Origin: Candidatus Didemnitutus sp.
GTDB taxonomy: Bacteria > Verrucomicrobiota > Verrucomicrobiia > Opitutales > Opitutaceae
Length of the DNA: 64,000 bases
NCBI GenBank assembly: GCA_030681265.1
Contig: JAUXXD010000201.1
Span: 7,870-71,869, forward strand
Direction: 5' to 3'
The translations under genes were made by a program, and so were the position numbers. This document shows positions 11,445 to 19,159 of this stretch, one piece after another (the stretch's first letter is position 1; each line of letters starts with the position of its first letter). The notes under the pieces are model-generated. The model had not been told where the DNA came from. It saw only the letters and a list, made by a program, of their open reading frames with translations, and did no database searches.

Positions 11445-11618
11445 AAGCTGATGGGGTAGGGTGGGGCACAAGATAGGTTTATCCGGAAAGTTACAAGCAG
11501 AAGCTTGCTCAAGTTGCTGCGCACTGCCGCCCCTTTGCGCCTAACCTGACCCGTGGCATGGTCGTTCGGGGCGGAAGGGCACGGGAAATCCAGCCACAAA
11601 CTGCCTCCAGGGGGAAAA

Positions 11619-11695
11619 TGGTCGGGGCGATAGGATTCGAACCTACGACCTCCTGGTCCCAAACCAGGCGCTCTACCAGGCTAAGCTACACCCCG
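11619..11695 (-). tRNA. tRNA-Pro(TGG)
   Basis: Minus strand CGGGGTGTAGCTTAGCCTGGTAGAGCGCCTGGTTTGGGACCAGGAGGTCGTAGGTTCGAATCCTATCGCCCCGACCA: cloverleaf, TGG anticodon, GTTCGAA T-loop, encoded CCA. Confidence 0.97.
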
Positions 11696-15025: not shown

Positions 15026-15248
15026 CCCGCGCGAGGGGGAGCGCAAACCCAAGCTCAAGCCGCGGCGCGGTCGCGGGCGCCGCACCGGACGAGCGCCTGC
15101 AGCCTTCTGGTGCGGGTTAGGGTCACTAATAAGCGGACGACCCGTTTCGCCGTCCCAGTCGCAGCCTTTACATCTTGGCCTGACGTTGGTTGGGTTTCGG
15201 CCTGTTGGCGCTCGACCCCTTCACGCCAGCGAACTGACAAAATCCGCG

Positions 15249-15959
15249 ATGAACCTACTTGGCTCGCTCTTCACCTCGTCCATTGGCAGAAAATTTCTGA
15301 TGGCGGCAACCGGACTCGTCTTGTTCGGTTTCGTCACGGGACACTTGGTCGGCAATATGCAGATTTTTCTCCCACCCGAGAAAATCAACACCTACGGGCA
15401 TCTGCTTGAATCGCTCGGAGTCGGGCTCTGGGCCGTGCGGCTCTTCCTGCTCGCCTGCGTGCTCGTGCACATCTGGCTGGCGATCCAACTCACATTGGAA
15501 AATCGCGCCGCGCGCCCGCAGGGCTACGGCGTCAACCACGTCAACCGCGCCACGCTCGCCTCGCGCGTCATGGCGCGCACCGGCATCGTCGTCCTGGCGT
15601 TTCTCCTTTTCCACATCGCTCACTACACCGCCCGCGTCTGGAATCCCGAATGGAGCGAACCCACCTACGCGTTGGCCGATGGCACGATGGTGCGCGACGT
15701 CTACGCGATGATGGTGGCGGGTTTCAGCAACATTCCCGTTTCGATCTTCTACATCGTGGCGGTCGGTTTGCTCAGCTACCACCTCGCGCACGGCATCGTC
15801 AGCATGGTGCAGACCTTCGGTTTGAAGAACGAAAAATGGACGCGCTGCCTCGAGCGCTTCGCCGTCGGTTATTGCTGGGTGTATTTCCTCCTCAACGCCG
15901 CCATCCCGCTCGCCGTGCTCGGCTACGTGCCGTTCCTCAGCGGTTTGATTCAACGCTAA
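15249..15959 (+). CDS. sdhC: Succinate dehydrogenase cytochrome b subunit (b558 type)
   Basis: SSIGRKFLMAATG, His-bearing TM helices, directly upstream of sdhA. Confidence 0.9.
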   Translation: MNLLGSLFTSSIGRKFLMAATGLVLFGFVTGHLVGNMQIFLPPEKINTYGHLLESLGVGLWAVRLFLLACVLVHIWLAIQLTLENRAARPQGYGVNHVNRATLASRVMARTGIVVLAFLLFHIAHYTARVWNPEWSEPTYALADGTMVRDVYAMMVAGFSNIPVSIFYIVAVGLLSYHLAHGIVSMVQTFGLKNEKWTRCLERFAVGYCWVYFLLNAAIPLAVLGYVPFLSGLIQR

Positions 15960-15971
15960 CTTTTTCCCGTC

Positions 15972-17894
<1,923 letters not shown>

Positions 17895-17903
17895 GACCCC
17901 GCA

Positions 17904-18336
17904 AATTACGAAGGACGAATTACGGATTACGATTTCAACGGGCCGCAATCTCCATGCACAAACACGAGCTCATCCAGCGGACCCAAACCTACGCTTTTCG
18001 CGTAGTGAAGGCGGTGCAAGCACTGCCACGTGACGAAATTTCCACCGTTCTCGGCAAACAATTGCTCCGTTCCGGCACCTCCGTCGGAGCCAACTACCGT
18101 GCCGCCTGCCGGGCCAAATCGACCGCTGACTTCGTGAACAAGCTCAAGATCGTCGAGGAGGAGTGCGACGAGTCCATTTATTGGATGGAATTGCTCGTAG
18201 CTGCCGGTTCGCTCTCTCGTCGTCGCCTTGAAGCGCTGCTTGATGAAAGCGACGAGCTTCTCTCCATCTTTGTTTCAGCTATCAAAACCACCCGCCGCTC
18301 CCGGGCCGCGTAATTCGTAATTCTGAAATCGTAAAT
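17904..18336. mobile_element. Four-helix-bundle gene cassette bounded by inverted heptamer arrays, between sdhA and sdhB
   Basis: Left 17904-17931 AATTACG AAGGACG AATTACG GATTACG; right 18309-18336 CGTAATT CGTAATT CTGAAAT CGTAAAT. Mobility is inferred, not shown. Confidence 0.55.
17954..18313 (+). CDS. Four helix bundle protein (23S rRNA IVS protein / TIGR02436-like family)
   Basis: 119 aa: RTQTYAFRVVK...LGKQLLRSGTSVGANYRAACRAKSTADFVNKLKIVEEECDESIYWMELL. Confidence 0.92.
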   Translation: MHKHELIQRTQTYAFRVVKAVQALPRDEISTVLGKQLLRSGTSVGANYRAACRAKSTADFVNKLKIVEEECDESIYWMELLVAAGSLSRRRLEALLDESDELLSIFVSAIKTTRRSRAA

Positions 18337-18343
18337 TCCTCTC

Positions 18344-19159
18344 ATGGTTGCCGAACACTCTCCTAAAAAACTTTTCTCCGTCACCCTCCGCGTCTGGCGT
18401 CAAGCCAGCACCAAGGAAGCGGGCCGCTTCGTCGATTACCCGTCGTCGAACGTCAGCCCCGACATGTCGTTCCTCGAATTGCTCGACGTCCTCAACGACG
18501 AGTTGACCATCAAGGGCGAGGAACCGATCGCGTTCGCCCACGATTGCCGCGAAGGCATCTGCGGCACGTGCTCGTGCACGATCAACGGTAAGCCGCATGG
18601 TCCGGGCAAAGGCATCGCTACTTGCCAGACTTACATGCGCAGCTTTCAGGAAGGCGACGTCATCGTCGTCGAGCCGTTCCGCGCCACGGCGTTTCCCATC
18701 ATCAAGGATCTCGTCACCGAACGCGCGGCCTTCGACAAGATTCAGCAAGCGGGCGGATTCATCTCCGTGCGCACCGGTGCCGCGCCGGATGCTAACAGCA
18801 TTCCGGTGCCGAAGGAAGATGCCGACCTCGCGATGGACGCCGCGCAATGCATCGGTTGTGGCGCTTGCGTGGCCGCGTGCAAAAACGCCAGCGCGATGCT
18901 CTTCGTCGCGGCGAAAGTTTCGCATCTCGGCCTCATGCCGCAGGGCCAACCGGAACGCGACCGCCGCGTGCTCGCGATGGTTTCGACGATGGACTCGCTC
19001 GGCTTCGGCAGTTGCACCAACCAATACGAGTGCAGCGCCGTGTGCCCGAAAACGATTTCGCACGACTTCATCGCGCGCCTGAATCGCGACTACGTCAGCG
19101 CGCTCATCAAGACGACGTTCAAGCCGACTTCCAATGCCGGCGCTGGCGGCGCGGGCTGA
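18344..19159 (+). CDS. sdhB: Succinate dehydrogenase iron-sulfur subunit
   Basis: [32 protein letters not shown]. Confidence 0.95.

Follow-up and report, generated by a model that had tools for sequence, protein, structure and literature searches.

The window analysed here, a stretch of 64,000 nucleotides from Candidatus Didemnitutus sp. (assembly GCA_030681265.1, contig JAUXXD010000201.1, positions 7,870 to 71,869 of the forward strand), contains an sdh operon in which sdhA and sdhB are separated by a small gene for a four-helix-bundle (4HB) protein, bracketed by two inverted arrays of 7-nt units that are called the left and right arms below (Table 1). The original prediction, made from the letters of the DNA, had placed a 119-aa 4HB gene between an undisrupted sdhA and sdhB, and this is borne out by full-length host domains on both sides and by three matches of the encoded protein: PF05635 (‘23S_rRNA_IVP’; 62.8 bits against a cut-off of 33.8, the sole Pfam match), TIGR02436 (‘four helix bundle protein’; 85.4 bits, cut-off 24), and the solved four-helix-bundle structure PDB 2RLD (E 9.5e-23, residues 9-115). 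The predicted four AATTACG units on the left and four reverse-complement units on the right were recovered by Tandem Repeats Finder as period-7 arrays of 4.1 copies of AATTACG (17904-17932) and 3.7 copies of CGTAATT (18309-18334), and the stop codon of the 4HB gene (TAA, 18311-18313) falls, as had been noticed, within the first right-hand unit CGTAATT. An inverted-repeat search joins 17903-17931 to 18309-18337 (29 nt, 76% complementary), and the proposed folding of the locus gave, for 17890-18350, a minimum-free-energy structure closed by the two arms. Connected by a GAAA loop the arms reach -22.5 kcal/mol (z = -3.1; 1 of 200 shuffles equal), with a predicted stem of 15 bp plus 6-9 bp. Between 17700 and 18500 there is no rRNA or other Rfam match, only two chance-level matches being returned at E up to 10, and no Shine-Dalgarno-like motif precedes sdhB in this filled allele. 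The 4HB gene is under purifying selection (dN/dS 0.16 against the sister genome; dN 0.165 with saturated dS against the congener G009). An alignment of the family shows Q31 and E68 as invariant and R34, S38, and N42 as nearly so (numbered on the trimmed first sequence of the alignment, to which about 6 is added for the 119-aa protein). Gene and arms probably constitute one insertable heptamer-hairpin cassette, akin to an intervening sequence (IVS), in the sdhA-sdhB spacer; the arms are mirror copies of 7-nt units, flush with the host stop and start codons, and are gained and lost together with the gene.

Table 1. Features of the sdh operon with its cassette, and of a gene-less hairpin, in the window (positions are those of the window)
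Feature	Position	Strand	Remarks
sdhC-like membrane subunit, first gene of the host operon	15243..15959	+	PF01127 (Sdh_cyt), E 5.8e-8; start approximate
sdhA flavoprotein subunit, intact, upstream host	15972..17894	+	PF00890 (FAD_binding_2) 180.5 bits, PF02910 (Succ_DH_flav_C) 124.3 bits, full profile coverage; TAA ends at 17894
Left arm, ~4-5 heptamers AATTACG AAGGACG AATTACG GATTACG ATTTCA	17903..17937	+	starts 8 nt past the sdhA stop
4HB gene, 119 aa, cargo in the loop	17954..18313	+	PF05635 / TIGR02436
Right arm CGTAATT CGTAATT CTGAAAT CGTAAAT	18309..18337	+	holds the cassette stop; ends 6 nt before the sdhB ATG
sdhB iron-sulfur subunit, intact, downstream host	18344..19159	+	PF13085 (Fer2_3) 73.4 bits and Fer4 domains
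Gene-less hairpin, GGAGACA/GGAGTCA units and complement	3603-3635 / 3737-3797 (C102:11472-11504 / 11606-11666)	+	loop ~100 nt; Tandem Repeats Finder

Twenty-eight genomes of the genus were scanned for PF05635 (G000 is the genome of the window, G001 its sister, and the other G-labels are congeners; L-labels denote compared loci). G000 holds four such genes and 26 of the 28 genomes hold 2 to 11 each; the full-length genes taken into the analysis number 107, over 43 host sites. Complementarity of the flanks was expressed as a stringent local-alignment score and compared with 1500 random genome windows of the same geometry and with non-cognate nulls, since the duplex-fold energies of GC-rich 100-nt flanks were too large to tell cognate from non-cognate pairs. 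Heptamer flanks at paralogs, whose absence would have counted against the original prediction, proved to be common: 75 of the 107 genes carry inverted period-7 arms with a complementarity above the 99th percentile of random windows, and in 62 it is higher than the largest null score. The same design was found outside the genus in 60 of 76 loci (scores above 30) of a single protein subfamily, retrieved with an 8-sequence subfamily alignment and spanning Planctomycetota, Acidobacteriota, Chloroflexota, Bacteroidota, Cyanobacteria, and others. Self-match within an arm is 0.63 at lag 7 against ~0.25 at other lags, and the median arm measures 31 nt, or 4.4 units, whose sequence varies by subfamily (GTTGAGA, GGAGTCA, GTCAGCG, GAGTAGC, ATTTTCG, GCGGATT, TCGTTCT, and others). 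The sdh cassette belongs, then, to a widespread and barely described class of operon-dwelling hairpin elements. One departure from the design is the locus L046 (G015:C110), where the CAGCTCC-type arrays that flank the 4HB gene are direct and not inverted repeats of each other.

Variant units occur in mirrored order in the two arms: the observed alignment score is 41.9 against 31.9 with unit order permuted in the genus, and 51.1 against 38.9 in the set from other phyla, so the arms are true complements and do not just share a consensus. Cognate left and right arms at one host site also pair better than arms combined across species (34.7 vs 28.1, p = 1e-6). Both results speak against the arms being inverted clusters of sites for a DNA-binding protein, in the manner of the subterminal repeats of transposons, with no pairing and with complementarity as a by-product of the shared consensus; such a consensus does not require a mirrored unit order, and we regard this reading as quite improbable, even though the lack of a G·U signature in the arms (see below) and a unit motif conserved across phyla at 50-65% protein identity would both suit it. 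On the sense strand left arms are G-rich (57:1) and right arms C-rich (49:19), which makes the element polar relative to transcription. Related proteins carry related units, across phyla as well: when different host sites are compared, the more identical the proteins, the more similar are the arms (r = 0.21, Mantel 2/2000), and units with GA[TAG]T in phase were counted in 46 of 61 cross-phylum loci and in 10 of 23 loci of clade A, the same protein clade within the genus, against 1 of 45 in clade B (p = 5e-14).

The host sites to which a name could be given, by eye and from the ends of the adjoining proteins, lie between cistrons of core operons: sdhA-sdhB, nuoF-nuoG, atpG-atpD, pheS-pheT, rfbB-rfbA, the junction of an ATP-binding cassette (ABC) ATPase with its permease, and positions before livH, ilvC, and thrC. 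In 79 of the 107 cases the cassette reads in the same direction as both of its neighbours, and in only 5 is a neighbour opposed (orientation was called by a criterion of GC content at third codon positions, as a version based on the longest open reading frame, or ORF, gave spurious antisense ORFs in this GC-rich genome). The fit is tight, with a median of 5 nt from the host stop to the left arm and of 7 nt from the right arm to the next host start, so that a closed hairpin would leave a median spacer of 15 nt. We picture the block as having settled in the 16-24-nt spacer of sdhA-sdhB, where it would be carried on the operon transcript; pairing of the arms, in the transcript, in single-stranded DNA, or in both, would loop the gene out, so that the host stop and start again lie about 15 nt apart. 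A restored distance of this order may explain why inserts are tolerated at tightly coupled junctions. At L070 (G016:C85:3864-4172 and 5240-5554) two closely related 4HB cassettes with related GAGACCA-type arms occupy neighbouring junctions 1.4 kb apart on one contig, which suggests a local duplication or hop.

The same geometry lends itself to a stronger statement, namely that the closed hairpin acts as a translational bridge that lets ribosomes coming off sdhA or the ORF of the cassette start anew on sdhB with no Shine-Dalgarno site needed; the arms would be kept because an armless insert would break the coupling. The residual spacer indeed resembles the 16-24 nt of empty sdh junctions; a GAGGA-type motif, seen by eye in most empty sdh junctions, is found in none of the filled ones; a Shine-Dalgarno-like tetramer precedes the downstream host gene in 4 of 56 cases, a count that stands without a baseline frequency for the genus; and the cassettes of one subfamily end in a stop codon that shares bases with the host ATG (ATGA). 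Ribosome shunting over a stem is, however, not established in bacteria, the gene-less hairpins described below need another rationale, and the bridge would account for tolerance and not for origin or spread. We hold it to be rather unlikely as the explanation of the arms.

The block comes and goes at the sdh site, which was compared over 24 congeners, with changes of state counted on a tree of sdhA and sdhB. Nine of them have an empty junction (16-69 nt, without arms), 5 have a 4HB cassette, and the remaining 10 have a gene of ~190 aa with an ORF6N domain (PF10543, 103.8 bits); in other families of the order the sdhA-sdhB distance is within ~30 nt. At least 10 changes of state are required on the tree, and the 4HB gene is not fixed among relatives at this site, in keeping with the original prediction. 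The sdh-site 4HB genes of G000, G001, G009, and G004 form one clade and that of G042, the sister of G004 on the sdhA/sdhB tree, falls in the other deep clade. The site thus has been filled at least twice by unrelated cassettes, because these sisters hold 4HB genes of the two deepest clades. Two unrelated 4HB clades were also found at three more sites (rfb, a kdtA-like site, and one other). At the ABC ATPase-permease junction 14 of 27 congeners have a cassette and 5 have 4-27 nt; here G006 and G023, with flanks 92.8% identical, differ by a 414-nt indel that comprises both arms and the gene, reading TGA TCC, the block from ATTTTCG to AATCCAAA, and ATG in the one allele and TGA CCG ATG in the other. 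The empty ABC ATPase-permease junctions of L286 (G005) and L285 (G010) read TGA TTTTCG ATG and TGA TTTTTGCCC ATG, and the single unit in each, similar to the ATTTTCG arms that other species have at this site, could be a footprint or chance. Insertion of 4HB genes into pre-existing hairpins was considered and finds no support at the sdh site, where empty junctions are without arms. The junction at which 14 congeners hold a cassette showed no gene-less hairpin of the same family, and loss of the gene with retention of the arms is therefore not the usual outcome at that site.

Inverted heptamer hairpins without a gene do occur at other junctions of G000. The exact 25-mer GTAATTCGTAATTCTGAAATCGTAA of the sdh right arm is present three times in G000 and three times in G001 (reversed-pattern control: 0), and its other two copies belong to hairpins at sufB-sufD (19-nt loop) and nuoD-nuoE (45-nt loop). 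The sufB-sufD hairpin is identical at 93 of 93 positions in G000 and G001, while the adjoining SufD N-terminus is only 84% identical. Looser copies of the arm were seen before ftsY (G024), at infB-rbfA (G004), and in frame inside hsdM (G011). The claim in the original prediction that the arrays are the ends of a non-canonical cassette without a transposase of its own is hence well supported as far as an evolutionary unit of gain and loss is concerned, by the 9 of 24 empty junctions, the two subfamilies in sister species, the 414-nt indel of arms plus gene, and an arm shared by three unlinked junctions. Two of these places have features of their own. In L225 (G011:C72:328-352) a AATCGTAAATCGTAAATCCGAAATCGTAAAT array lies in frame within an hsdM-like gene for a type I methylase, where it is translated to ..PKIVNRKSEIVNY.., and L227 (G004:C71, infB-rbfA) is an arm ‘graveyard’ in which, within ~230 nt before rbfA, a small ATTTTCG-type hairpin, a solo right arm of the same family, and a solo AATTACG-family right arm lie together. 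In the window, the hairpin at 3603-3797 has the unit family of the nuoF-nuoG cassette of G000 (C74:388-693) and adjoins a convergent membrane-protein gene instead of an operon junction.

The relation between cassettes and gene-less copies is best read, by analogy, as that of a RAYT gene (REP-associated tyrosine transposase; REP for repetitive extragenic palindrome) to its REPINs: the hairpin would be copied into other junctions, sometimes together with the gene and sometimes alone, and the copying agent may be the 4HB protein itself. This leads to a wider view, which we put forward as an appreciable possibility short of probable, of a cognate protein-repeat system like REPIN-RAYT or NTS-Ssn, in which a pentamer of the 4HB protein recognises its own 4-5 heptamers as single-stranded DNA, RNA, or duplex, and maintains or spreads them, the gene-bearing cassette being the ‘master’ copy for a family of gene-less hairpins within its genome. 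The unit family follows the protein clade across phyla and host sites, as set out above, and the dispersed arrays point the same way. A gene-less heptamer hairpin is present at sufB-sufD in ~20 of 25 congeners, with at least 8 unit families read and two genomes empty, and its best match among 4HB cassettes is one elsewhere in its own genome in 10 of 22 cases (score 32-76); the mean rank of the own cassette is 7.2 against 13.5, and none of 5000 permutations was as low. Of the 59 period-7 arrays that G000 has outside cassettes, 13 are of one of the four unit families resident in this genome, where chance would give 7.3% (p = 2.8e-4). The median number of windows with GTTGAGA arrays is 116 for the 7 genomes with the cognate 4HB clade and 1 for the 21 others, and GGAGTCA arrays are commonest in three of the four genomes with a nuoF-nuoG cassette, both being comparisons of abundance that leave phylogeny uncontrolled. 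The number of units per arm (median 4.4) agrees with a pentamer, relatives being homopentameric by the account for Xanthomonas S23p that is cited in PMC4990558. On the other side, GTTGAGA arrays are plentiful in G002, G011, G013, and G021, in which no cognate gene was found, the GAGTAGC family of G000 has no gene either, and the protein shows no recognisable nuclease or recombinase motif. For PF05635 we know of nothing comparable to the DNA cleavage by Ssn, and of no nuclease fold. A module of the GAGTAGC family, made up of a small palindrome GGGAGCGAGCTAGCTCGC and a CTCGCTA-type array, is tandemly duplicated before a gene start at G000:C16:32425-32550.

Extending this, we tentatively propose that PF05635 pentamers are sequence-specific partners of heptamer arrays of ~4-5 units per arm, that gene-bearing masters and gene-less dependents would make up one two-component system across phyla, that ORF-bearing 23S IVSs would be copies that landed in rRNA, and that the junctions may also serve as landing pads for other cassettes of a single gene, such as ORF6N.

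A purely RNA-level alternative, close to the other option of the original prediction (arms that pair in the mRNA and loop out the ORF), would see in the element a strict IVS, whose double-stranded stem in the sdhCAB transcript is cut by RNase III so that the 4HB mRNA is freed and the host fragments are held by the lower stem, the arms being kept by selection on this RNA stem alone. The family link behind it was correctly given in the original prediction: 23S IVSs are excised by RNase III (PMC4990558), just as the similarity to Avd, the accessory protein of diversity-generating retroelements (DGRs), is on record (PMC10053308). In the helix 45 IVS of Coxiella burnetii an S23p ORF of the same family is enclosed by a 28-bp stem containing tandem GACAGAT heptamers, and RNase III cuts this stem, with excision in vitro (PMC4990558); the 15 bp plus 6-9 bp that the sdh arms can form, the co-orientation of cassettes with their operons, and the polarity of the arms (57:1 and 49:19) all would fit. 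The mismatches in the arms fit less well. A stem maintained as RNA leads one to look for G·U pairs on the sense strand, and no such excess was found (G:T 52 vs A:C 85 in the genus, 49 vs 61 in the other phyla). In the genus, with 68 armed cassettes, the tendency is the opposite, with A:C favoured over G:T (p = 0.006; 15 vs 4 host sites), and the antisense strand forms the more stable hairpin in 44 cases against 24. An antisense bias of pairing was rejected as a general property, as 61 cassettes of other phyla did not show it, and is for that reason treated as unexplained; antisense hairpins are in any case equally or more stable. Moreover, the 4HB frame crosses the right arm in many copies, and translation through it would melt the stem. 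We judge the strict IVS doubtful.

PF05635 resembles Avd, and a DGR accessory gene or another reverse-transcriptase-dependent element was considered for that reason. RVT_1 genes are absent from G000 (template/variable repeat pairs were not searched for) and occur in only 6 of 28 congeners against 26 of 28 with 4HB genes, and the neighbours here are sdhA and sdhB; this reading, hardly conceivable, was rejected. A classical insertion sequence or miniature inverted-repeat transposable element was likewise dismissed, there being neither a transposase nor a target-site duplication.

Several points weigh against an insertable cassette. Pairing of the arms is itself inferred from their sequence, with no sense-strand G·U excess to back it (above). 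The sdh copy has weak arms (score 25, the 99th percentile of the 1500 random windows), and the fold of its whole cassette is no better than that of shuffles (z = -0.24); on their scores the arms are real, yet at the weak end of the family range. No target-site duplication was seen on comparing filled with empty sdh junctions or in the G006/G023 indel. The cassette encodes no enzyme, as Pfam finds only PF05635 and no transposase gene in it, and movement between near-identical genomes was not seen. Within the genus vertical inheritance at a fixed site prevails, the protein tree requiring 45 changes of site for 43 sites; 4HB proteins group by host site, and most cassettes are old residents. Replication slippage can cleanly remove a long palindrome, and no excision function has to be invoked for a clean loss. 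The match between gene-less hairpins and cassettes of the same genome is partly confounded by shared ancestry, and the GAGTAGC-type family, with ~10 arrays in G000, has no 4HB gene in the assembly. With these points counted in, the insertable IVS-like cassette still appears to us the probable reading.

Among known systems the closest in print is the ORF-bearing 23S IVS of Coxiella and Leptospira, and the closest in logic are REP/REPIN-RAYT and NTS-Ssn. With the former (PMC4990558) the sdh cassette shares the protein family in the loop, an inverted-repeat stem of ~28 bp, heptamers in the 5' arm with a variable number of units, and a long-suspected mobile origin for which no enzyme is known. The 23S IVS, however, sits in an rRNA helix (25 or 45) whereas the sdh cassette occupies an mRNA operon junction; the Coxiella ORF is decaying and probably untranslated while the sdh-cassette ORF is under purifying selection; cleavage by RNase III is known there whereas the sdh cassette is known from sequence alone; and the sdh cassette, unlike the 23S IVS, has gene-less copies with the same arm at other junctions. 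REP/REPIN-RAYT systems (PMC3733652) likewise have a single gene between inverted short repeats, gene-less repeats between co-directional genes of the same genome, and genome-specific families. They differ in that the RAYT is an HUH/Y1 tyrosine transposase, and not a 119-aa four-helix bundle for which no activity is known, and in that REPINs are 20-40-bp palindromes with a GTAG tag and not tandem heptamer arrays. Ssn proteins (PMC11893778) form a small family in which each homolog is tied to its own dispersed, gene-surrounding repeat, and are GIY-YIG nucleases with demonstrated cleavage of single-stranded DNA. Avd of the DGRs has a homologous family and the same four-helix-bundle fold (PMC10053308), the difference being that G000 has no reverse transcriptase. 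Intergenic heptamer repeats have been described as inverted pairs of GGGAATC in Xanthomonas (PMC4692102), as arrays of GGGACCG and MTYCTGA in Geobacter (PMC2700814), and as TAACTGA in Beggiatoaceae (PMC4679880). These, too, comprise about four 7-nt units between co-directional genes, often in convergent pairs, and frequently abut start codons without a Shine-Dalgarno site; the papers, however, name no gene family and propose G-quadruplexes or translational control. A cassette of gene plus arms outside rRNA was described in no paper that our literature search found.

If true, the proposed reading would connect three old puzzles: what the very abundant proteins annotated as ‘23S rRNA IVS protein / four helix bundle protein’ do, where the intervening sequences of rRNA come from, and why bacteria have an excess of heptamer repeats between their genes. 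The inserts also matter for annotation and for how operon expression is read, lying as they do within core operons (sdh, nuo, atp, suf, pheST, liv, rfb). The genus lends itself to direct tests, because its species differ at one junction in being empty or in having a gene-less hairpin or a gene-bearing cassette, with units matched within genomes.

The sdhA-sdhB junction accommodates inserts of other kinds as well. The ORF6N gene is intact in L009, L012, L013, L017, L018, L020, L024, and L025 and decayed in L026 and L027; its stop lies 6-7 nt before the sdhB ATG, and palindromes such as GGATATCCCAATTTGTGACATCC occur both upstream of and within its own coding sequence. At L020 (G003) a gene-less ACTGAAA-type hairpin with a loop of ~95 nt follows downstream of ORF6N, and two different inserts thus share one junction. 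The otherwise ‘empty’ sdh junctions of L007 and L010 (50 and 69 nt) contain the motif GTCATCCTGAGCGAAGCCGAAGGATC in L007 and a close variant of it in L010, which looks like a dispersed repeat of another kind.

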